Below, piece by piece: positions 3,206 to 64,000 of a stretch of 64,000 nt of DNA (the stretch's first letter is position 1; every line of letters starts with the position of its first letter). Under the pieces are notes generated by a model, which ran no database searches, was not told where the DNA came from, and was given only the letters and a program-made list of their open reading frames with translations. The DNA is taken from NCBI GenBank assembly GCA_036676395.1, contig JAKFCY010000002.1:864001-928000 (forward strand). The letters are read 5' to 3'. Source of the DNA: Bdellovibrio sp. (GTDB taxonomy: Bacteria > Bdellovibrionota > Bdellovibrionia > Bdellovibrionales > Bdellovibrionaceae). The position numbers and the translations under genes are program-made.

Positions 3206-3741
3206 TGAAAACAGCTAATTATTTTTTCGTTTTAATATTAAGTTTATTTATTTCAGGCACAGCCTTTGCGCAAGCTAAGCGAGTCTATCGTACTTCACTT
3301 AGTTTGATTCCTTTGACGACGTCAACCAAACAAGCGGGCAATGGCCCTGAGGGCAGCACGATAATGAGCCAATTTGAATTTGGTGTTCACCAGCCTTTTT
3401 GGGGTTATGGCCTTTTCTATCAGTATGACCAGCATGGCGATTTTCAAAAAGATTTAGGCCTTGGCTTAAAATTAGAAGCTACTTATAAAGCGATGTATGT
3501 GGATGTAGGTTATCTTTTAAATGTGCAAAGAGTTTACGATGACCGCACTTATGAAAAAGAAACCGGTGATGGCTATTATTTCGGGCTAGGTGCACGAGTA
3601 GAATTAGGTAAAAATTATTTCTTTAATTTAACTTATAAATACCGCGTGCATAATATTAAAAAACAAGACGACACTTCATTGTCAGATCCCATTGTACAGA
3701 CTGATTCTTATCCGCTGTTAGGCTTGGGAGTCAGTTTCTGA
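3205..3741 (+). CDS. Small outer-membrane beta-barrel protein
   Basis: Signal peptide (AFA-Q), alternating aromatic/Gly strands, C-terminal LGLGVSF beta-signal. Confidence 0.7.
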   Translation: MKTANYFFVLILSLFISGTAFAQAKRVYRTSLSLIPLTTSTKQAGNGPEGSTIMSQFEFGVHQPFWGYGLFYQYDQHGDFQKDLGLGLKLEATYKAMYVDVGYLLNVQRVYDDRTYEKETGDGYYFGLGARVELGKNYFFNLTYKYRVHNIKKQDDTSLSDPIVQTDSYPLLGLGVSF

Positions 3742-4559
3742 GAAACATAATTCTTGCAGTTTTATTTTTGAGTACTTTAAGTTGTGGCAAAAGACCGGCA
3801 GAGCTTTTACGTTTGCAGCAAGCTTATCCCGAAGACTTTCCAATTTATGCGACAGTCGGTGATGGCACCGGACGAATTTGGCAGATTGATCGCGACGGAA
3901 CCAAAACTGAATTTGTATCGGGATTAAGTGATCCGCAAGGTCTTGCCACTGATGGTAAAGGAAATCTCTTTGTGGTTGAGCAGGGGGCTTCGCGATTACT
4001 GCGTTTTGATATTGCCAGTAAAGCACAAACCGTTGTGGCCTCGGGGCTTTCAGTTCCAACCAGCGTGTCTATTGATTCTAAAGGCGAAGTTTATGTCAAT
4101 GAAGAAGGGGCAAATCGAATTCAGAAAATTTCTGACGCTTCAACGTTTGCCAGTTTTTCGAGTGCACCATCAGCTTTTATTTTTGGTCTCGGTGATCAGC
4201 CGATAATTGGTTTTTTTAATTTGAACAGCACGCAGTGGGGATTAGATGGGGCCACGCAGTTTAGCATTCAAAAACCGATTGCCATGGCTAAAGATATATT
4301 AGGCCGAGTTTATGTTTCGGAAGGAACAGATTCTGGCTCACGTATTATTCGCATTGGCCCAACACAAAGTGATAGCACTGAAGTGGTGGTTAATGGTTTA
4401 AATGGAGCTTTTGGTGTGATTATTGATCGCAGCGGAAATCTGTTTGTGGCCGAGACCGCTGAATCGCGTATTGTATTCGTGACACAAAATAATCAACTGT
4501 ATAAATTTGTCGATTTAACCGCGCCACTGTATATGACAATGACGCGTGTTCTTGAGTAA
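3738..4559 (+). CDS. NHL/beta-propeller repeat probable lipoprotein (probable CTG start at 3738; ORF track start 3768)
   Basis: Repeats of GL.xP.GLA.D..GNLFV.E; extending to CTG gives the signal MRNIILAVLFLSTLS-C. Confidence 0.7.
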   Translation: MRNIILAVLFLSTLSCGKRPAELLRLQQAYPEDFPIYATVGDGTGRIWQIDRDGTKTEFVSGLSDPQGLATDGKGNLFVVEQGASRLLRFDIASKAQTVVASGLSVPTSVSIDSKGEVYVNEEGANRIQKISDASTFASFSSAPSAFIFGLGDQPIIGFFNLNSTQWGLDGATQFSIQKPIAMAKDILGRVYVSEGTDSGSRIIRIGPTQSDSTEVVVNGLNGAFGVIIDRSGNLFVAETAESRIVFVTQNNQLYKFVDLTAPLYMTMTRVLE

Positions 4560-5702
4560 CTAGACTCTCATCATAGTTTCATTTGAAAATTTGTTACGCT
4601 TGTAAGGCAAAGAACTCATCAGAGTTTTAATCTCTAAGTCTTTCATATCTTCGAAAGTTTGATCCCAGGATTTACTATCTAAATAGTCATCAACTTTTTT
4701 AAGCCACTCTGGGTTTTGTTTGGTTTTCATGACTTCTTCACAAGCCGCTAAAAAACAAGTCGCGGTCCTTGCCGTTTTTACTAAACCTAGAGGTTCATAC
4801 GTTTCAATAAGAATATCTTGCGGCGTTGCGACCACCGGGCGGCCTGTGGCTAAGTACTCATACATCTGGGTGGTTGTGTTCGTGTTTTTATCTTCTTTGT
4901 AGGGCGCGATAGTGACATCCCAACCGGCAAAATAATGCGGAAGGTATTTGTAATCTTTGCGACCAAAGAAATAAATATTTGGTCTGCGCGGAAGATCATT
5001 GTAACAACTGCCAACCATTGGGCCGACTAAAATAATATTCCAGCTCGGGCGGTAATCTGCCAGGTCAGTGAGTAAATCAAAATTAAGCTGATTGCTGATT
5101 TCTCCGCAAAATCCAAGTTTTGGTCCTGAAATCTTTTTCTGATCCAGGGGTTCATTCACAAGCCGCGCTTGACGAAAGTGTGCCAGATCAATGCTGTTTG
5201 GAAAATTATGTATATTGTGATGTTGGCTTTTTCTATGCGAGTAAAGTTTTTCATTCGCGGCAAAAACCAAATCTGCTTTTTCTAAAAGTTCGATTTCATG
5301 AATCGATAATTCTGAAGGTTTTTCAGAATTGGTTTCTTTAACGCAATCATAAATCGTACTGATCGGTGATAGGTGGCGACTATAATTAATAGCATCAGCT
5401 GAATCATACCTTACTGAAAAATTAATAATAAATTCATCTTCGATAAGGTCATCGACCACGCGTTTCATCGCTTCAGTGACTTCCTTAGAGGTCAGATCTG
5501 CTGGCAATACGGGTTTGATCACTTCAACGCCGTTTTCAACAAAGACTTTGCGATAACTGATTTGAGTCGTGTCTGTAAAAAGTGGCTCTTCAACAAAAAA
5601 GACTCGGCGATATTTTGCATATCTTGAAAGTAAATGTTGCGTACGTTGATAAACAAAGCCCCAGCGAGTTTGAGAAAATGCTAACAGATCATTCTTAATC
5701 AT
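4560..5702 (-). CDS. GT-B fold glycosyltransferase (group 1-like)
   Basis: WGFVYQRTQHL...VFFVEEP, IYDC, ADLVF, PNIYFFG, YEYLATGRPVVAT; G-rich RBS before ATG 5702. Confidence 0.8.
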   Translation of the reverse strand: MIKNDLLAFSQTRWGFVYQRTQHLLSRYAKYRRVFFVEEPLFTDTTQISYRKVFVENGVEVIKPVLPADLTSKEVTEAMKRVVDDLIEDEFIINFSVRYDSADAINYSRHLSPISTIYDCVKETNSEKPSELSIHEIELLEKADLVFAANEKLYSHRKSQHHNIHNFPNSIDLAHFRQARLVNEPLDQKKISGPKLGFCGEISNQLNFDLLTDLADYRPSWNIILVGPMVGSCYNDLPRRPNIYFFGRKDYKYLPHYFAGWDVTIAPYKEDKNTNTTTQMYEYLATGRPVVATPQDILIETYEPLGLVKTARTATCFLAACEEVMKTKQNPEWLKKVDDYLDSKSWDQTFEDMKDLEIKTLMSSLPYKRNKFSNETMMRV

Positions 5703-5745
5703 AATGTATCCCCCAATTAAAACGAACAAGTGATGTGGGGTGATT

Positions 5746-5762
5746 TGCACTATAAATGCCAA
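5746..5762 (-). promoter_or_regulatory. sigma54-like promoter for the glycosyltransferase
   Basis: Minus strand TTGGCATTTATAGTGCA = GG-N10-GC. Confidence 0.55.
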
Positions 5763-5811
5763 TAAGAATCGGCTTTGTAGCGGTTACGAAAAATCTATTC
5801 GGGGTGAATTC

Positions 5812-5833
5812 GGCATTCTGATACCAGAATGCC
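5812..5833 (-). terminator. Hairpin, probable terminator of the 5849-7843 gene
   Basis: GGCATTCTG-ATAC-CAGAATGCC perfect 9-bp stem just after the stop codon; weak U tract. Confidence 0.5.
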
Positions 5834-5848
5834 CCAAGCTAAAGATTG

Positions 5849-7843
5849 TTAGTGCGTTTGGATGAGTGTTCCGTTTTTAAGAATAAGTTCTTCTAAGTTA
5901 TACGGAGAACCATCTTCTTTTAAGAAGTTTCTTAAGTTGTATGAACGATCTAAGATATAGTTGTTTTGATCGATAATGTATTTAAATAAATTAATGCGAT
6001 TAAAACTTTCTTCTGATGGGTATTTTTGTACGCCTGAACCCATCTCGTGACCCGAGAAAGAAAACTGCACTAAAATACATTCGGGTACCGTTTCTTCGTT
6101 AATCACGTTAGCAAAGATCGCTAAACCATAGTCTCCGAACAGATCATTTTTAAGAGATAACTGATCAAAAAGTTTAAACTTATCATTTAAAGGAACTCCG
6201 GCGCTAAAAATGTAAGTTAAGCTGTTAATGATTTCATGTCTTTCTTTTTTGTCGACTTTATTTTGTAGTGATTTAATAGCGCTAAATAATTTATCTACTC
6301 GCTGTTCGATCATATCGCGGCTAAGATTTTGATTTAATTCAAAAATTTTATTAGTCACATAAAGTTCAAAGTTAACATATGAATTGTGATATTTATCACG
6401 CACAGATTTGCCTTCATGCGGAAACTTAATCACATTTTTAATAGCTTTTGGCATGTGTTGGCCAGTGGTCTCGTAAAATTCTAAATATTTTTTCTGGCGA
6501 AGGCTATAGTGTCTGCGCGATTTTGAAAAGTGAACGCCGACAACGCTTGTTTTGTTGTCTTGGCTATCTGCTTTAAATAATAGATTTAATTGTGAACGTT
6601 TTTCTTTTTCCCAGTTGTCAAAAAGGCTGAATTCGCTGTTTTTACCTACAGAATGTAAGAAATAGTTTTCTTTATCGTCTGCTTGATCACCAACAACTGC
6701 GATTTGGGCGTCAGATGAGTTATTGTTTCTTGTGTATTTAACTAAACGAATTAGGTTAAACGTGCTTGAGCTTTCATCTGCTTCTGTATGGTTTTCAGCG
6801 TTGATGATTTTGATCACGCGTTTTTTATTATCGGCTAAGTTTTTATCTGCGGCTGCGATTGCGTTAAATTGCGAAAGATCAGCAAATAGATTCTCATTAA
6901 ACTGACGGCGGTCTTTTAAGAATTGTGATGCTGAAATATATTCGCGCACTAAATCTACATTAAAGATTTTCATTTTTTGCGCAACGATAGAATCATAAAG
7001 ATTACGCGCATCTGTAGAATCAAGATTTAAAACATAATCACCTAAGTAAAGATCGGTCGTGCGATCAGTGGTAGATCCTGTAAAGATACGGTCATCTAAT
7101 AGTTTTTCAACAACCAGTGAAGTCACCGGATCGTGAGTAAATAATTTAACACCGGCAAACCAACCGCGGTTTTTATCGTTCACGGCGATGATTTTTAAAC
7201 GGATCAAGTTATCGCTCATGCGAAAGATCTGAATGTCAAATTCGCCATTAATAAAATAGCGGTAGCCTGCATTTAACGGAAGACTTGCGCCTAAGGTTTT
7301 TAAAATATTGGCACTGGCTTCAAATACAAGCGGAATACGGTAACCGATAAAATCGCCAGTTTTAAAAACTAATTGGCCATTATCACGGCGAAAGAAATCC
7401 TGCGCTGAACGCGGAATTTTTGTTACCGGATCATACGGTAAGCGCAATAAAGAGTCTTTACGGTTTTTAAATTGCTGAATATAAGTGATTTGCTTTTTAG
7501 CACTCACGCCAACATGCACAGGCAGATCGTAATTAAAAATGCGTGAATCAATACCGGCTTTGACTTCCCAGATATCAATACCTGAGTAGTTTTGTGCGAC
7601 AGATGGATTAGAAATAAATTTATATTGTCCGCCAATTTCGATACCGTGAAATAACTCAATTGAAGGAAGGTTTACTTTCTGAGTTAATTTTGAACTGCGG
7701 ATAGAATCTAAAAAATCAGCCCAGATACCATCATTTTTTTTAACTTCGGTTTTGCTGACATCTGCATTTTGCGCAAAAGCTATATTGGCCGTTAAAAGTA
7801 AGGCAGCTGTAAAAGCTTTAAACATGTTCTGGGTCTGTTTCAT
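5849..7843 (-). CDS. Secreted hypothetical protein (664 aa)
   Basis: Long ORF, signal peptide (AFA-Q), AAGGA RBS; no recognisable motif. Confidence 0.75.
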   Translation of the reverse strand: MKQTQNMFKAFTAALLLTANIAFAQNADVSKTEVKKNDGIWADFLDSIRSSKLTQKVNLPSIELFHGIEIGGQYKFISNPSVAQNYSGIDIWEVKAGIDSRIFNYDLPVHVGVSAKKQITYIQQFKNRKDSLLRLPYDPVTKIPRSAQDFFRRDNGQLVFKTGDFIGYRIPLVFEASANILKTLGASLPLNAGYRYFINGEFDIQIFRMSDNLIRLKIIAVNDKNRGWFAGVKLFTHDPVTSLVVEKLLDDRIFTGSTTDRTTDLYLGDYVLNLDSTDARNLYDSIVAQKMKIFNVDLVREYISASQFLKDRRQFNENLFADLSQFNAIAAADKNLADNKKRVIKIINAENHTEADESSSTFNLIRLVKYTRNNNSSDAQIAVVGDQADDKENYFLHSVGKNSEFSLFDNWEKEKRSQLNLLFKADSQDNKTSVVGVHFSKSRRHYSLRQKKYLEFYETTGQHMPKAIKNVIKFPHEGKSVRDKYHNSYVNFELYVTNKIFELNQNLSRDMIEQRVDKLFSAIKSLQNKVDKKERHEIINSLTYIFSAGVPLNDKFKLFDQLSLKNDLFGDYGLAIFANVINEETVPECILVQFSFSGHEMGSGVQKYPSEESFNRINLFKYIIDQNNYILDRSYNLRNFLKEDGSPYNLEELILKNGTLIQTH

Positions 7844-9199: not shown

Positions 9200-9246
9200 A
9201 GCTACCATCCTTGGCGGGCTTCTGACGGCGTCGTGCCGTCAGATCA
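9200..9246. repeat. 47-bp dispersed hairpin repeat, copy 1
   Basis: 43/47 identical to 16464-16510; stem TCTGACGGC/GCCGTCAGA. Confidence 0.85.
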
Positions 9247-9273
9247 AGGGGAATTTTTTAGGAAGGTTTTTTT

Positions 9274-10230
9274 ATGGAGTATCGTCGTTTAGGTCAGTGT
9301 GGTCTTAAGGTTTCTGCTTTATCTTTTGGGTCTTGGGTTACGTTTTCAAATCAGGTAGATACAAAACTTGCGGCTAACTGTATGGCTGCGGCTTATGAGC
9401 ATGGTGTGAATTTTTTTGACAATGCTGAAGTTTATGCCGGTGGAAAATCCGAAACTATTATGGGCGAAGTTCTAAAAAAATTAGAATGGCCTCGTTTGAA
9501 ATATATTGTTTCGACAAAATTTTTCTGGGGCATTACTGATGGTCCGAATGAACGTAATACTTTAAATCGTAAATATTTATTAAATGGAATCACAGGTTCA
9601 CTTAAACGTTTGCAAATGGATTATGTGGATCTTGTCTACTGTCATAGACCTGATCCTAATACGCCTATCGAAGAAACTGTCTGGGCGATGCATGATATGA
9701 TCGAACGTGGTTATGCTTTGTATTGGGGAACATCTGAATGGAATGCTTCTGAGATTGATCAAGCTTATCAAATCGCTGAAAAATATCACCTACGTAAACC
9801 AGTGGTTGAGCAACCGCAGTATAACTTATTATGGCGTGATCATGTTGAAAAAGAGTTGGCTCCGATTTTTGATAAATATGGTACGGGGTTAACAACTTGG
9901 TCACCGTTAGCTTCGGGTTTATTAACTGGAAAATACTTAGGCGGAAATGTTCCTGAAGGGTCACGCTTAAGTTTAGAAAGTTTAGGCTGGTTAAAAGAAG
10001 ATGCACTAAGCACTGAAAAAACCGAGAAGGTAAAAAAGTTTGTTGGTATCGCTAAAGAGTATGCTTTTGACCCAGCACAATTGGCTCTTGCTTGGTGTTT
10101 AAAGAATAAAAATGTAAGCACTGTGATCACTGGCGCTTCAAAAGTAGAACAAGTCCATCACAATATGAAAGCGATGGATCTTGTTGCTAAAATTGATGCT
10201 GAACTTTTAAAGAAATTGAACTCGATCTAG
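9274..10230 (+). CDS. Aldo/keto reductase, Kv-beta-like subfamily
   Basis: [51 protein letters not shown]. Confidence 0.92.
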
Positions 10231-11000
10231 CTAAACCAATACGAGCGCATTGAGATCGAACCATTCTGAATTTCGTTGTAAACGACTTCTGGCGGAACGG
10301 TTCGATTTTCAAAACTGGCTCCTAGGCAATACACTAGCGGTAAAAAATGTTCTGGCGTTGGTACTGCTAATTTGCCAGCAGGGTGTTTATCCCAGTTTTC
10401 AATTAAATTTTGATCGTCGCGATTTTTAACCTGTTGGTGAACCCAATGATCAAAATCTGAACTCCACGCCATGACCGGCGCTTTTTCTTTCCAGTCAAAG
10501 TTTCGTAAGTTGTGCACGATATTACCTGATCCTAAAATTAAAATGCCTTGCTCGCGTAAATCCGCAAGTTTTTCAGCCAAGCGGTAATGTTCAGTAAAAG
10601 ATTTACTGCGATCTAAACTTAATTGCACAACCGGAATATCTGCTTTCGGAAAAAGGTGAACTAACGTTGACCAGGCCCCGTGATCTAAACCCCAGCTGTT
10701 ATCGGGTTTAATTCCAAGTTCTGTTTTTTTATCAAACATTTGTGGATACCCTGATGGCTGATATTTAATTTCATATAACTCATCAGGAAACCCTGACATG
10801 TCATAGATTTGTCTGGGTTTTGTATCCATCGTAAAGTGGGTACCATTAGCAGTCTCCCAGTGAGCCGAAATCATTAAGATCGCTTTCGGTGGATTTTTTA
10901 ATAATCTTTCACCTAGGTCATTTAATGTTCTTGAGTACTCGTTATCAGCTAGCGCATTCATCGGTGAACCGTGGCTAATAAATAAAATGGGTTGTCTCAT
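10227..11000 (-). CDS. ygiD: DODA-type extradiol ring-cleavage dioxygenase (YgiD/LigB family)
   Basis: [45 protein letters not shown] before ATG 11000. Confidence 0.88.
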
Positions 11001-58544: not shown

Positions 58545-59093
58545 CTAATTTGTTTTGATCTGATCGATATAGTATCTTAATTCGCCGATACTTTCGCGAA
58601 TATCACCTAAAGCGCGATGCGCATTCTGCTTACGATACATTTTATCAAATTTATTATTAAAAATAATCTTCCAAGAGCTTACGTCTAACATTCTGTAATG
58701 TAGGCGCTCGGCGATTTTTGGAAAATACTTATCTACAAATAAACGATCTTGCGTGATCGAGTTACCGGCCATGATCGGGCGAAATTTTTTGTCTTCTTTC
58801 CATTGTGGCCAGTGACGGTCAATCATCGAAGTCACATGAAATTCAACCGTATCTGGCTCCATACCGTTCGGCACAGCCGCCGTTAAGCCCGAAGCGCCGT
58901 GATGTTCGGTATTCCAGGCATCCATCGCGTCTAGGTACTTTTGCGGCTGTTTAACGATGGCTTCAAAGCTATCTAGCTCTTTGAAATCTAAGTCTGTGAT
59001 AATGCAGGCGCATTCGATCACGACTTCTTTGTTTACATCAAGGCCTGTCATTTCCATATCAAGCCAAAGAAGTTTTGAGATTTTATCTAACAT
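58545..59093 (-). CDS. orn: Oligoribonuclease
   Basis: WLDMEMTGL, HHGASGL, AGNS..QDR.F, HYR.LDVSS, HRALGDI.ESI.EL. Confidence 0.94.
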   Translation of the reverse strand: MLDKISKLLWLDMEMTGLDVNKEVVIECACIITDLDFKELDSFEAIVKQPQKYLDAMDAWNTEHHGASGLTAAVPNGMEPDTVEFHVTSMIDRHWPQWKEDKKFRPIMAGNSITQDRLFVDKYFPKIAERLHYRMLDVSSWKIIFNNKFDKMYRKQNAHRALGDIRESIGELRYYIDQIKTN

Positions 59094-59104
59094 GTTTTTA
59101 AAAC

Positions 59105-59434
59105 CTATTTCTTAGTTTCAGTTTTTGCTTCAGGTAATTGAACTTTGTAGTTATCGCCTGCAGATTTAACGGCTGCATCTAATGCTACTGTATCTAAAGT
59201 TTTACCTTCTTTTAAGCGTAAAGAGATTTTGCCAAGTTGTTTTTTGCTATCAATAACAGTTACGCCGCAAGATTCAAAATTTTCAGACAATTTAGCATCA
59301 GCACATACTTTTTTACTGATCATTTTAGTGCAAGCTGCGCAGTGAACGCCTTCTACGATCAGGTCGGTTGTAGCATCAGCAGCAGGCGATAAAGTCGCAG
59401 TCAAAGTAATAAGCGCAATAATAAGCGTTTTCAT
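59105..59434 (-). CDS. Periplasmic heavy-metal-associated (HMA-like) protein
   Basis: Signal peptide; VEGVHCAAC. Confidence 0.7.
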   Translation of the reverse strand: MKTLIIALITLTATLSPAADATTDLIVEGVHCAACTKMISKKVCADAKLSENFESCGVTVIDSKKQLGKISLRLKEGKTLDTVALDAAVKSAGDNYKVQLPEAKTETKK

Positions 59435-59612
59435 AGGGGGCTCCTTCAGGATTTTGTCGAAAACCTAGTATGAACCAAAGTCGGCACACTGGGAATCGGG
59501 AAATTATCCCCAAATAAGTTTTTATTGCTATTTTATTACGCAGTGTAAAAAAAGTAGTTGAAAACAAACCGTCTTTCCCAATATATTGGTCCCACTGCAA
59601 ATATTACTTAAC

Positions 59613-59689
59613 GGAGTTGTAGTTAAGTTGGTTATAACGTCCGCCTGTCACGCGGAAGGCCGCGGGTTCGAGTCCCGTCAACTCCGCCA
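59613..59689 (+). tRNA. tRNA-Asp(GTC)
   Basis: Cloverleaf: acceptor GGAGTTG/CAACTCC, anticodon stem TCCGC/GCGGA with GTC at 59647-59649, TTCGA T-loop, encoded CCA. Confidence 0.97.
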
Positions 59690-59796
59690 TTTTTCTCATG
59701 AATAATTTCAAATACTTAGATACGATTTTTCCTAAGAAGCCGAACGGGTTTCGAACTTTTTTATAATAAAATAATTTTAACGATTGGAAGGCGCTT

Positions 59797-60477
59797 ATGG
59801 AAATCGGAATTATAGGTTCAGGAAATATTGGGAGCATTCTTGCGAGTCATCTTACGAAGCTTGGTCATAAAGTATTTATCGCGAACTCGCGTGGCCCAGC
59901 CACTTTAGAAAAAGTAGCTGCCGAAACAGGAGCCTCGCCAGTAACTGTTGAAGATGCAGCAAAGGCGAAAGATATTGTGATCATAACAGTTCCTGAAAAG
60001 GCCATACCTAATCTGCCAATTGAGATCATTTCAAAAAGTTCTGCGATTATAGTTGATACGGGCAATTACTATCCAGCACGCGATGGACAGATTCAAGACA
60101 TTGACGGTGGTTTATCGGAATCAGAATGGGTAGAGCGTATGTTAAAGCGCTCAGTCGTTAAAGCATTTAACAATATTGTAGCGCCAAGTTTAGCTTCAAA
60201 GGCATCACCTGCAAAATCAGCCAGTCGTGTGGCTTTGGCTATATCTGGTGACAATTTACAAGCTAAGCAAAAAGTTTCGGAATTAATTAACGCCATTGGA
60301 TTTGATGTTGTTGATGCTGGTAAGCTTTCAGAATCGTGGAGACAGCAGCCCGGCACACCAGCATATTGTCGCGATTTAACTGCCAGCGAACTCAGATCAG
60401 CGTTGATGCAAGCAGAAGTGAAAAAAATTGATGATTATAGACATGAGGCCAATGAACAAGCACGTCCATATTTTTAG
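59797..60477 (+). CDS. NADP-dependent oxidoreductase (F420_oxidored family)
   Basis: IGSGNIG Rossmann motif, ANSRGP, VDTGNYYP.RDG, VKAFNNI, SWRQQPGTP. Confidence 0.88.
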   Translation: MEIGIIGSGNIGSILASHLTKLGHKVFIANSRGPATLEKVAAETGASPVTVEDAAKAKDIVIITVPEKAIPNLPIEIISKSSAIIVDTGNYYPARDGQIQDIDGGLSESEWVERMLKRSVVKAFNNIVAPSLASKASPAKSASRVALAISGDNLQAKQKVSELINAIGFDVVDAGKLSESWRQQPGTPAYCRDLTASELRSALMQAEVKKIDDYRHEANEQARPYF

Positions 60478-60511
60478 GGAGCTAAATGGCTCGCAAATAA
60501 GTTCTAAACTC

Positions 60512-60534
60512 GTCCCATTGAGTCCGCCATTTTT
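60512..60534 (+). repeat. Degenerate direct repeat of the tRNA-Asp 3' end (att-like)
   Basis: GTCCCATTGAGTCCGCCATTTTT vs GTCCCGTCAACTCCGCCATTTTT (59672-59694), 19/23. Confidence 0.7.
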
Positions 60535-60735
60535 TGATGGGTTAAAGTTAAGTACTTAATAAATCTATCGGATCTAAAATCATAAAAATTTTAAGAATCA
60601 GCAAGGGCCAAATAAGGGCCATCGGTGATTTTGGCTTATCTTCAATAGCAAAATCTACGACTCTAACGGCTTGCTTTAAATGAACATGGTTAAGATGCGC
60701 GTAATCCATTGCCTGATCTGAGTAGGAGTTTGCTT

Positions 60736-61557
60736 ATGGGCCCATTGGACGAAAATGAACTTGGAGATAAATTAAAAAGCAATTTATGGGAGCCAGATCC
60801 CAGATCTTTATGCTTTGGCATGATAACGCCAACCATTGATCGCTACATTGAATGGATGTCAAAAGCTAAGCTAAATAAGGAAGTGCCTTTAAGTGTGAGA
60901 CAGTATTTTGCCAGCGCTCGAAATACATTTATTTATTCATTTTACGATTATGGAATGAGTATGCCCGCGCAACTTTACGCTTTTTCAATCTTAGAGAATA
61001 CAATCAAGCGGCGATTTAAAGAGTTGAATATTCAATTTGACGATTCATGCGGCTTGGGAGTGATGTTTAAGTTAGCGAAGAAAGATAATTTTTTTTCCTT
61101 AGAAAGCTTTAATAATGATATTAATATACATGACCAGTTTCATAGATATATACATTATTGGGCGGATCACGGAAGCTCTACATTCATCTATAAAGAACCG
61201 AAGTGCTTCCCAGTAGCGTTTAAGTTTATCGATTATATAAGAATGCGGACCAATAAGTTGATAGCAACTACCCTTAGGCAAATAAAAATAACGGGTAGAA
61301 TTAATGAGTGTATGCATTCTATCGTTAACCGTTTTGCCCAACAAATAAAGTCGATGCTTAGATCAATTTCAAAATATATGTACAAAATTAGACAAAGCAA
61401 ACATCCCGAAAGTTTGCCTAAATTTTCAGGAAAGAGAAATCTTTTGGCTCATGGTCAAGAGATGATGGACTTGCCGTGGGAGGCATCTCATACAATATCG
61501 CTCTGTGCAAAAGGAATAAATAGTCTGTACCATCCAAGTGTTGAGAGCAGATTTTAG
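60736..61557 (+). CDS. HEPN-like putative ribonuclease
   Basis: Helical protein with a helix-2 Glu (AFSILE) and R-x4-H (KRNLLAHG); AGGAG RBS before ATG 60736. Confidence 0.6.
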   Translation: MGPLDENELGDKLKSNLWEPDPRSLCFGMITPTIDRYIEWMSKAKLNKEVPLSVRQYFASARNTFIYSFYDYGMSMPAQLYAFSILENTIKRRFKELNIQFDDSCGLGVMFKLAKKDNFFSLESFNNDINIHDQFHRYIHYWADHGSSTFIYKEPKCFPVAFKFIDYIRMRTNKLIATTLRQIKITGRINECMHSIVNRFAQQIKSMLRSISKYMYKIRQSKHPESLPKFSGKRNLLAHGQEMMDLPWEASHTISLCAKGINSLYHPSVESRF

Positions 61558-61562
61558 CTGTT

Positions 61563-62471
61563 TTAAATGGGTTTGATTTTAGTAATTTCCTCATTAATCC
61601 AGGCTCCAATGTGTGGGAGAAACTTATCTATCATTGCTAAGTGGTACTTAATTCTAATTCCAACAACTGCTTTAATGAGTGAAGTTTTTGTTCGGTGCTC
61701 AATTAAAATAGCGGTTAGCTTAGCAGAGCGTAGGGACTCATTATTTGTGGATAATTTTATATCTTGGGGAATTCCATAAATTATATAAATGCCGCAACCA
61801 CTCATGCCTTTCAAGGAAGGAGCTGTTTGCCAAGTGTCATTAATCACAATTTGAGTGTCGCCAGAAAGAGCTACATGTTCTGATTCATTCAATTTAAGTT
61901 TTGAATACTCATTAGAGTCGAGTTCGAAGAAGCTGCATACATCAATAGGGTTTCGATCAGATCTTTGATAAAATTTCGATCTGCTTGCTATAAATCCAGT
62001 AGCTATATGTAAATGAACACCAGTAGGTTGTGTTAAATCGAGGTGCTCTAAATTTAAAGCACAGCTTTTTATATCATCAGTTACTTGGTCTTTTTGTATA
62101 TGGAAAACTGCTGCATCGAGAGGGTCGTCTTGGTGCGTTCCAGAAGCTCCTTTCCCAGTGCTGAATCGATCTCCATTTAAAAAATGAAATTTGCCCTCGC
62201 AGCCTATGATTACTGGGTAATCTTTGTATTCCTCAATGGCGTGAGATGCTGTGAAAATAAAGTGCTCCGTTGAGAGCTTTATAAGGACCCCAGATGCAAT
62301 TTGTATAGGAGGATTTGATATACCTGGAGGTTTAGATAAATTTAATACGTAAAGTGGAACAGAGGCTTGAGGCATTTTTTTAAGTATATCTCTTGCGGCA
62401 CTAGCTCGGTTTTCAAGTTCTCCAAACATTTTTTTCAGTAAAGGGTGTTTTGGATTAAATTTAGACTTCAT
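61563..62471 (-). CDS. Cytoplasmic trypsin-like serine protease
   Basis: ASGVLI...FTASH (His), LDAAV (Asp), GMSGCGI (Ser); no signal peptide; start uncertain. Confidence 0.75.
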   Translation of the reverse strand: MKSKFNPKHPLLKKMFGELENRASAARDILKKMPQASVPLYVLNLSKPPGISNPPIQIASGVLIKLSTEHFIFTASHAIEEYKDYPVIIGCEGKFHFLNGDRFSTGKGASGTHQDDPLDAAVFHIQKDQVTDDIKSCALNLEHLDLTQPTGVHLHIATGFIASRSKFYQRSDRNPIDVCSFFELDSNEYSKLKLNESEHVALSGDTQIVINDTWQTAPSLKGMSGCGIYIIYGIPQDIKLSTNNESLRSAKLTAILIEHRTKTSLIKAVVGIRIKYHLAMIDKFLPHIGAWINEEITKIKPI

Positions 62472-62594
62472 TTTAACATTATAACTTCGGAGTGAATAAT
62501 TGCGAGAGTACTTTAAATTGGGGCAGTGTGTTTGAGTGTTTTGTGTAACAGCTTGCATTTTAAGCAACACCTTCGTTGTCAGTTTAATTATTAA

Positions 62595-63653
62595 GTGATT
62601 GAATACTCGAAGATGAGTGGGCCAACGACTAAAAATATATTAATTGATCCCAAGGATGTTAGCGTACCTCCAGAAATTAAAGAGGCCGCGATAATGGGGA
62701 ATTTAACCATCTTTGTTGGCAACGGAGTGTCTCGCCTATATGGCCTCCCATCTTGGAATGGTCTTGCTGATGCAATGCTAAAATCTTTAGTTAATAATAA
62801 GCAAATAAATCACAACACTCACGAATTATTATTAAAGTATCCAATAAAAACTAAAATTTCGATTGCCGATCGTTTTTTTAAGCAGAATTTAGCAACTGGT
62901 GCATATTCTGATATGTATTATGGTTCAATGTTGAAAGTCGATGAAGCCGTTAAAAAAAAGATTTTTACGTATAGTTTGATTGCGAAATGTGGCTGCAAAT
63001 TTATAACGACTAATTATGATTTATTATTCGCCGAAGCATTGAATGGAAACCTTGTCGAAACGGGAGATATTAACCGTGCCGACGTTGAAAATCAGGGATC
63101 GCAAGAAAAAATAGCTGTAAAGAAATCTCAAAGTTATGAAGTAATTAGTAGTCTTAACGATTTTTCCAAAACTAATGTTTTAGAAAAAAACTTTTTAGTT
63201 CATTTGCATGGTTCACTTAGTGATGAAAGTAAAATCGTTGCATCGACAGCTGATTATTTAAATTTATATAGTAATGAAGATAACAGAGATAAACTCACGC
63301 AGATTTTTGATAAGCAAACAGTAGTGTTTATTGGTTATGGGCTTGATGAGTTGGAGATCTTGGAATTCATTTTTAAAGCTGCTAACAGAGAAAGTGGTAG
63401 TCAGTTTTATTTACTGCTCTCACTATTATCTCATGAACTAGAAGTAATACAGCATTTAGAGCAGTACTATAAAGAACAGTTAAATGTCACATTGCTAACA
63501 TATTGCCGAGATCAAGAAGGTTATCTTGCATTGAATCAAGTCGTTGAGAACTGGGCAAAAGAGTTAGAAGGTTTGGTTCAATCTCCGAATCAACCTTTCA
63601 AATTTAGAGTACTGGAAGGTTTGATGAAAGACCATGAGAAGGCGGACTTGTGA
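62595..63653 (+). CDS. Stand-alone SIR2-like (SIR2_2) putative NADase
   Basis: IFVGNGVS..GLPSW, FITTNYD, HLHGS, VFIGYGL.E. Confidence 0.85.
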   Translation: MIEYSKMSGPTTKNILIDPKDVSVPPEIKEAAIMGNLTIFVGNGVSRLYGLPSWNGLADAMLKSLVNNKQINHNTHELLLKYPIKTKISIADRFFKQNLATGAYSDMYYGSMLKVDEAVKKKIFTYSLIAKCGCKFITTNYDLLFAEALNGNLVETGDINRADVENQGSQEKIAVKKSQSYEVISSLNDFSKTNVLEKNFLVHLHGSLSDESKIVASTADYLNLYSNEDNRDKLTQIFDKQTVVFIGYGLDELEILEFIFKAANRESGSQFYLLLSLLSHELEVIQHLEQYYKEQLNVTLLTYCRDQEGYLALNQVVENWAKELEGLVQSPNQPFKFRVLEGLMKDHEKADL

Positions 63654-64000
63654 AAAAAAGCCAGCTAGCAACGCAAATTATTGAAGTAATTTCCAAAGAT
63701 GAAAGTAGCTCGACTTATTTCTTTGGTAATTCAAAAGATCCAGATTTGTTTATTCCGTTAAAAGAAGCAGGTTTCTTTGATATCTCCAAAGTGCCGCCAA
63801 TTATTCGTATTGACGAGTCCAAATATAGATATCCTCAGTGGCCACAAAATCATTATTTAAAAATGGTCGCTCAAGCACTTCGAAAAAATGAAGAGGTGCG
63901 TAGCAAAAACATTACTAAGTTCTTAGAAACACTTCGAAATCTATACCCAATTGGAGACAATCAAATAATAGCGGATTTCGTGTTCGAGTGTGTCACTTTG
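63650..64000 (+). CDS. Hypothetical protein coupled to SIR2 (3' truncated by window edge; absent from the ORF track)
   Basis: GTG at 63650 overlaps the SIR2 TGA; open to the window end: MKKSQLATQIIEVISKDESSSTYFFGNSKDPDLFIPLKEAGFFDISKVPP...YPQWPQNHYLKMVA... Confidence 0.75.
   Translation, partial: MKKSQLATQIIEVISKDESSSTYFFGNSKDPDLFIPLKEAGFFDISKVPPIIRIDESKYRYPQWPQNHYLKMVAQALRKNEEVRSKNITKFLETLRNLYPIGDNQIIADFVFECVTL

Follow-up and report, generated by a model that had tools for sequence, protein, structure and literature searches.

A stand-alone SIR2 gene whose stop codon overlaps the start of a second gene raises two questions: what the partner is, and whether the two genes make one system. Such a pair lies at the right-hand end of a 64,000-nt stretch of a Bdellovibrio sp. 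genome (contig JAKFCY010000002.1, positions 864,001 to 928,000), referred to here as the window. A preliminary description made from the letters of the window had proposed a candidate new two-gene anti-phage system consisting of a SIR2 NADase and an unrecognised partner. Our analysis indicates that the locus very probably encodes the anti-phage system DSR1 (defence-associated sirtuin 1) in a form that is naturally divided over two genes. The first gene would encode the SIR2 NADase effector, and the second a helical sensor of ~940 aa equivalent to the C-terminal part of single-chain DSR1. The features of the pair within the window are:

62595..63653, + strand: SIR2 effector gene, 352 aa, GTG start; putative N-terminal DSR1 module as an open reading frame (ORF) of its own (ORF listing, Pfam, PADLOC)
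62718..62732, + strand: GNGVS, residues 42-46, the GxGxS NAD-binding loop (alignment)
63006..63020, + strand: TTNYD, residues 138-142, with the predicted catalytic Asn140 (sequence and alignment)
63201..63215, + strand: HLHGS, residues 203-207, with the predicted catalytic His (sequence and alignment)
63639..63645, + strand: Shine-Dalgarno (SD)-like AAGGCGG, 5 nt before the sensor GTG and within the end of the SIR2 gene (sequence)
63650..63653, + strand: GTGA stop/start overlap, a translational-coupling junction (sequence read)
63650..64000, + strand: 5' part of the putative sensor gene, GTG start, 117 codons inside the window (ORF listing)

Both genes match a single DSR1 model

The first ORF is as it had been described, a 352-aa SIR2 protein with intact TTNYD and HLHGS motifs and no fused sensor domain: SIR2_2 (PF13289, E 4.9e-19) was its sole Pfam domain. 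Residues 23-347 matched positions 11-304 of the PADLOC Dsr1 model PDLC04166 (E 2.9e-45). The second ORF had been noticed as a GTGA-overlapping frame open for at least 117 codons, and the adjacent sequence of the genome shows that it does not end soon after the window but is complete at 940 aa (window-equivalent 63650-66472; L002 3651-6473). Its residues 7-931 matched positions 309-1221 of the same 1227-position model (E 2.5e-71), and the two ORFs together tile that model colinearly from end to end. Because both match one Dsr1 model in this way, we read the pair as one DSR1. The partner is therefore no longer unrecognised, being the C-terminal DSR1 sensor, and the pair is better regarded as a split variant of a described system than as a new one.

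A fused relative gave the same picture. P0012, the closest such relative and a single chain of 1280 aa, aligned over its residues 7-350 with residues 16-351 of the SIR2 protein (44% identity) and over its residues 355-1277 with residues 3-935 of the partner (36% identity). The gene boundary corresponds to residues 351-354 of P0012, at the domain boundary, with nothing gained or lost. This colinearity and the tiled Dsr1 model support an earlier suggestion that sensor and effector are encoded here as a split pair, which may correspond to long SIR2 fusion proteins divided over two genes. At the level of sequence, the comparisons reported here establish that both halves are homologous to DSR1 and run colinearly with fused relatives, and that the split and the catalytic residues are conserved.

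In the three SIR2 motifs, G42/G44/S46, T138/T139/N140, and H203/H205/G206 were invariant in 23/23 aligned SIR2 proteins, split and fused. The GxGxS motif takes part in NAD binding in sirtuins generally. The true start of the SIR2 gene may be the ATG at 62613 instead of the GTG at 62595, because the aligned homologues begin around residue 16 of the window protein; the GTG is also only 24 nt away from the annotated start of a divergent ORF. The SIR2 proteins of three Bdellovibrionaceae shared an insertion, lacking in most other split SIR2s, that adds ~25-40 residues between TTNYD and HLHG (window 63021-63200, SIR2 residues ~143-202, alignment columns ~170-215).

Dsr1 was the only family that the partner matched in PADLOC, and Pfam, NCBIfam, and PHROGs returned no match for it. 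The preliminary description had judged the partner to be unlike HerA, prokaryotic Argonaute (pAgo), TIR, or a STAND NTPase, and these searches agree; Pfam and PADLOC found no STAND NTPase domain on it. Models for pAgo or APAZ matched neither the SIR2 ORF nor the partner (PADLOC, Pfam), and the partner did not match DSR2 in PADLOC or in a sequence search of the PDB. The SIR2 ORF had a weak ThsA match limited to the SIR2 core (PADLOC, E 4.1e-7), and its N-terminus (residues 15-79) was weakly similar to DSR2 chains in the PDB (E 1.7e-6). No relatives of the sensor were found in the phage records searched.

The sensor is only 22-25% identical to the fused DSR1 of other clades. A PDB sequence search gave no match for the sensor alone or for a narrow profile (A2). 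A broad profile built from both sensor clades (A4) matched 9n00_A inside the sensor with a weak E of 8.7e-4; PDB 9N00 was confirmed to be apo SeAvs7. Profile positions 302-485 fell on residues 908-1088 of that chain, and two weaker stretches were colinear with them. This match, though weak, agrees with the published homology between Dsr1 and Avs7.

Split and fused forms alternate within the sensor family

We searched 182 genomes of the Bdellovibrionaceae family for relatives of the partner and found one in 4/182, the window's genome (G000) included. G060, from another genus, and G153, from the same genus, each had a SIR2 ORF (350 and 348 aa) overlapping a partner ORF (946 and 931 aa). These proteins are only 34-36% identical to those of the window, and the overlap and the frame offset differ. 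The remaining genome, G079, contained a fused form of 1240 aa.

Stand-alone sensors were in the majority among the relatives drawn from larger protein collections. A word-indexed search of 5.8 billion proteins returned six close stand-alone sensor clusters, 935-947 aa in length, together with a fused protein that was equally close (1294 aa, SIR2_2) and two distant ones. When 1.84 billion cluster representatives were searched exhaustively with phmmer, 1559 sensor relatives reached E <= 1e-3, and 147 reached E <= 1e-30. Of 157 proteins taken from the phmmer and word-indexed searches, 22 were fragments, leaving 135 full-length relatives. These were stand-alone in 110 cases (median 938 aa) and otherwise fused to SIR2 (15), TIR (6), or a nuclease-like domain (4).

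Gene order was read from genomic loci. A scan of species-representative genomes gave 145 relatives, from which 80 loci were kept. In 83 loci, stop-to-stop ORFs were searched with hidden Markov models (HMMs) of the window's two proteins, and upstream ORFs and N-terminal extensions were clustered all-against-all. SIR2 was the effector in 32/83 loci, as a separate gene directly upstream of the sensor in 30 (the window's included) and fused in 2. A small nuclease-like effector accompanied the sensor in 40/83, separately in 26 and fused in 14; TIR was fused to the sensor in three, and eight loci, mostly at contig edges, were unclassified. Both the fused and the split homologues that were sought thus exist, and the partner's co-occurrence with SIR2 is seen in the 30 split loci. 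These span Pseudomonadota, Thermodesulfobacteriota, Planctomycetota, Bacteroidota, Elusimicrobiota, and others. The pair is also present on a finished plasmid from cultured Vibrio coralliilyticus. Its annotation there gives two intact genes that overlap by 8 nt, a 'SIR2 family protein' of 306 aa and a 'hypothetical protein' of 942 aa, and these tile the Dsr1 model just as the window pair does.

In a FastTree phylogeny of 81 sensor domains, the window protein fell in an all-split Bdellovibrionales subclade within a SIR2-dominated clade, and a second clade was dominated by the nuclease-like effector. The 81 rows required at least 15 changes of arrangement (split/fused) and at least seven changes of effector type. 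In an IQ-TREE phylogeny of the 30 closest proteins, fused forms were nested among split ones with at least six changes. On the evidence of these trees, fused and split forms interconvert readily; the switching is so frequent that both forms presumably work alike.

The other effector classes had features of their own. The nuclease-like class comprised proteins of 220-300 aa, encoded by a separate gene in L015, L027, L031, L054, L078, and 21 other loci and fused in L024, L032, L047, and 11 others. Its only Pfam similarity, with sub-threshold E values of 3.6e-5 to 8e-3, was to the predicted pPIWI-associated nuclease pP_pnuc_1, and the two of 26 separate ORFs scanned with PADLOC (L054, L078) gave no match there. 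The three TIR-sensor fusions (L068 3473-6772, L073 2196-5537, L082 3347-6727) contained TIR_2 with E 1e-9 to 1e-3 and formed one clade nested among split SIR2 forms. A single chain of 1177 aa from Patescibacteria (L028 2684-6214) combined a LexA DNA-binding domain (E 1.4e-10), a nuclease-like domain, and the sensor. In L072 the sensor occupied two ORFs of 685 and 420 aa (3407-5461 and 5567-6826; HMM positions 8-496 and 537-884), which is either a broken gene or an intra-sensor split. An Arenicellales locus (L034) had a second SIR2-like ORF ~2.5 kb downstream of its split pair (9203-10585). This ORF matched the SIR2 HMM with E 1e-49 and was still open, at 461 aa, where the locus ends.

The junction between the genes

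In the window the junction reads GAC TTG TGA, with the partner's GTG at 63650-63652. The partner frame, -1 relative to SIR2, has a TGA stop at 63635-63637, and any fusing indel is therefore confined to 63638-63650. These 13 nt hold no homopolymer and no X XXY YYZ heptamer. A run of seven A (63653-63659) starts on the last base of the SIR2 stop codon and for that reason is unable to join the frames. Another sequencing run (X5) yielded a contig of 642 nt at depth 5.5 that agrees with 63490-64000 letter for letter and without gaps, and so shows the identical split junction in place of a single fused ORF. This run is only partly independent, because one possible source run comes from the same study. 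Contigs of runs X3 and X4 span only 63200-63429, short of the junction. The earlier argument that the stop at 63635 and the lack of a slippery site speak against a frameshift artefact is borne out by these data and by the overlap pattern and SD motifs below. A promoter scan was at chance level (15 found vs 15.2 expected), and the accompanying terminator scan found none between the genes or after them.

Short stop-start overlaps prevailed in the 30 split SIR2 loci: 8 nt in 15/30 (ATGnnTAA type), 4 nt in 8/30, 1 nt in 2/30, and other spacings in 5/30. Relative to SIR2, 19 of the partners lie in frame +1, 10 in frame +2, and one in frame 0. An SD-like 4-mer was present at -20 to -5 of the sensor start in 28/30 loci vs 14% at random positions of the same genes; the loci are related, so the binomial p-value for this motif overstates the case. 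In many loci the motif is encoded by a conserved Glu-Val close to the SIR2 C-terminus. The junction features fit independent initiation with translational coupling, and not decay or programmed frameshifting.

Proposed mechanism

According to the preprint by Garb et al., B. subtilis expressing DSR1 was defended against phi29; NAD+ was depleted transiently, and the culture did not collapse. For the sensor family itself, a preprint and the 2026 Nature paper on Avs7 and Dsr1 sensors report that the Dsr1 and Avs7 sensors are homologous and that phage major capsid protein (MCP) triggers EcDsr1 and SeAvs7. The AlphaFold3 models of EcDsr1 in that paper have a bilobed, sharply bent repeat domain.

In our proposal, the two genes of the window would be co-transcribed and translationally coupled through the GTGA overlap, with the sensor's own SD motif serving its start. 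The sensor would hold SIR2 in an inactive complex, bind a phage protein, and then activate NAD+ hydrolysis. We consider it likely that the SIR2 protein and the sensor come together in a complex equivalent to the single-chain protein. It is also fairly likely, if a little less so, that what the sensor binds is a phage protein produced in the course of infection. The leading candidate for this trigger, by analogy with EcDsr1 and SeAvs7, is the MCP, a tentative proposal that may well prove wrong in this clade. Binding is likely to switch on SIR2, probably by oligomerisation, so that NAD+ is hydrolysed and phage replication blocked.

A wider reading would make the two-gene layout the default of a modular platform and no degraded DSR1; in this platform the sensor family works in trans with exchangeable separate effectors and single-chain DSR1 is a derived minority. 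We regard this as unlikely. If true, it would mean that the effectors (SIR2 NADase, nuclease-like, TIR) are swappable by replacing the upstream gene, that stoichiometry could differ from 1:1, and that one sensor might serve more than one effector.

Alternative explanations

The split could be damage, with a single-chain DSR1 disrupted by a recent frameshift or an assembly error and the two ORFs left as pseudogene remains. The colinearity with fused relatives, with a boundary within a few residues of the domain junction, would be expected of such remains; a single indel in an overlap of this kind could interconvert the forms, and fused and split proteins adjoin in the tree. Against this, the fusing indel would have to fall within 13 nt free of homopolymers, the second run's contig has the identical junction, and both ORFs are full length with intact motifs. 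The split is also kept at 34-36% identity in two further genomes, in 27 further loci of other phyla, and on a finished plasmid. Its overlaps there are canonical and SD motifs accompany them, and stand-alone sensors outnumber fused ones 110 to 25. We give a broken gene very little credence. Programmed ribosomal frameshifting or read-through could instead yield a single fused DSR1 polypeptide, and the -1 frame of the partner, the overlap of the ORFs, and the A7 run at the junction are what would draw attention to it. A slip on that run cannot bypass the stop, however, and 63638-63650 offers no X XXY YYZ heptamer. The partner frame varies among the split loci, so that no single recoding mechanism fits, and a start codon with an SD-like motif in 28/30 points to independent initiation; we attach practically no weight to recoding. 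A different logic for the same split DSR1 would be that the sensor is an inhibitor or antitoxin that releases a constitutively active SIR2 on infection, or that it senses a non-capsid phage protein or nucleic acid. Separate genes permit non-1:1 stoichiometry and differential turnover, the clade is distant from EcDsr1 so its trigger may differ, and a sensor family that also serves nuclease-like and TIR effectors need not share one activation mode. Yet the frequent interconversion of fused and split forms argues that both work alike, and a covalently fused inhibitor is not releasable. The published trigger of EcDsr1 and SeAvs7 is the MCP, and effector disruption abolishes toxicity there. We therefore hold this logic to be very unlikely.

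Several observations weigh against the split-DSR1 reading itself or against parts of it. The NCBIfam Dsr1 equivalog NF041818 (cutoff 1400 bits) gave 25.1 bits for the SIR2 ORF and no match for the partner. The fused relatives likewise fail it, with a best score of 57.9 bits; from these scores, NF041818 is a narrow model and the window's clade lies outside it, as a distant branch of the DSR1 family. The SeAvs7 match is marginal, its best single stretch having an i-Evalue of 0.032. The 83 loci were chosen by similarity to the query, so their counts are not independent and are biased to this clade, and the 110 stand-alone sensors are known as proteins only, without genomic context. Each partner was taken to begin at whichever start codon lay closest to the SIR2 stop, and this choice favours short overlaps. 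The capsid trigger is extrapolated from distant homologues, and the helical, bilobed architecture assigned to the window's sensor is taken from the literature only.

Relation to known defence systems

The closest known system is single-chain DSR1 of the PDLC04166 branch. The window has the same two modules in the same order, a SIR2 with GxGxS, TTN, and HxHG followed by a sensor of ~900 aa, and the literature on DSR1 would predict NAD+ depletion as the output. Unlike DSR1, the window encodes two overlapping genes, not a single polypeptide, it fails NF041818, and its sensor has the low identity to the fused DSR1 of other clades given above. Avs7 (SeAvs7, PDB 9N00/9N01/9YIX) resembles the pair in its MCP-triggered sensor family, which is reported as homologous to the Dsr1 sensor, but in Avs7 a STAND NTPase separates the effector from the sensor and the protein forms ATP-bound tetramers; the window pair is without an NTPase. 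DSR2 likewise combines a SIR2 NADase with a large helical sensor, which in its case binds the tail tube, a structural protein of the phage, but the sensor family is different and DSR2 is a single chain.

The two-gene layout is shared with SPARSA, in which SIR2-APAZ and a short pAgo form an operon and a SIR2 NADase is controlled by a separately encoded sensor. Short pAgos are described as pairing with SIR2, TIR, and nuclease effectors, the same kinds as those of the Dsr1-like sensor. The window partner, in contrast, is no Argonaute and has no APAZ, and its expected trigger is a protein, not guided nucleic-acid recognition. The Thoeris layout, a ThsA gene for SIR2-SLOG with a ThsB gene for TIR, was not found among the island ORFs scanned. 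As candidates for the pair, SPARSA, Thoeris, Sir2-HerA, and Avs5 were rejected, with no partner-domain matches in PADLOC or Pfam.

The finding is a real, conserved, under-annotated, and modest variant of known DSR1, and it leaves the basic picture of that system unchanged. DSR1 has been catalogued and modelled as a single-gene system, and in this sensor clade the split form predominates (110/135 full-length proteins). In the preprint and the Nature paper on the Avs7 and Dsr1 sensors, 'split proteins' are mentioned in the Methods only and neither text has two-gene or operon wording, nor does the preprint use 'stand-alone' or 'standalone'; the supplementary tables, which lie outside this comparison, may tabulate split forms. 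Pfam recognises no domain in the sensor, which RefSeq and atlas clusters list as a 'hypothetical protein', and for these reasons DSR1 censuses probably undercount the split form. A natural split lets biochemists express, titrate, and mutate the parts separately to ask how the sensor activates SIR2. The repeated switching between fused and split forms illustrates the modular rebuilding of defence systems, as does the way in which one sensor family exchanges SIR2, TIR, and nuclease-like effectors.

Genomic surroundings

The pair belongs to an island that begins just behind a tRNA gene:

59613..59689, + strand: tRNA-Asp, left edge of the island (ARAGORN; synteny break vs G137)
59719..64000, continuing to window-equivalent 67650 (L002 1-7651), no strand: in-window part of a ~7.9-kb island that is not in the closest relative, G137 (blastn)

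By blastn, window 58549-59718 corresponds to positions 1428-2609 of the G137 locus (L096), and the match resumes at window-equivalent 67651, which is L096 2644. In G137 the tRNA flank is thus followed only 35 bp later by the equivalent of 67651, and the flanks are 91-93% identical. Island GC is 36.4% vs 39.6/41.0% in the flanks. No direct repeat of at least 9 nt was found at the island ends, and no integrase was found on the island. The context shown here is that of a mobile defence island.

The island has six ORFs, of 226, 282, 335, 352 (SIR2), 940 (sensor), and 343 aa. TIR was not matched by the 282-, 335-, and 343-aa ORFs in Pfam or PADLOC, a scan that did not extend to the 226-aa ORF (59797-60477). 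Only the SIR2 and sensor genes are common to the three Bdellovibrionaceae loci, and the pair is therefore a self-contained unit. In G060 (L088 92-9837) it directly follows DrmA-DrmB-DrmC of DISARM, with the end of DrmC overlapping the start of SIR2; the successive gene overlaps suggest that the DISARM genes and the split DSR1 pair there make one transcription unit.

The 335-aa ORF (61563-62570, - strand) is divergent from the SIR2 gene and nearly an orphan, with two distant homologues in 5.8 billion proteins. It contains a GMSGCG motif that by eye resembles that of serine proteases, and it weakly matched the PADLOC LmuA model (E 6.5e-10, residues 92-266) and phrog_36721. It may be another defence gene.

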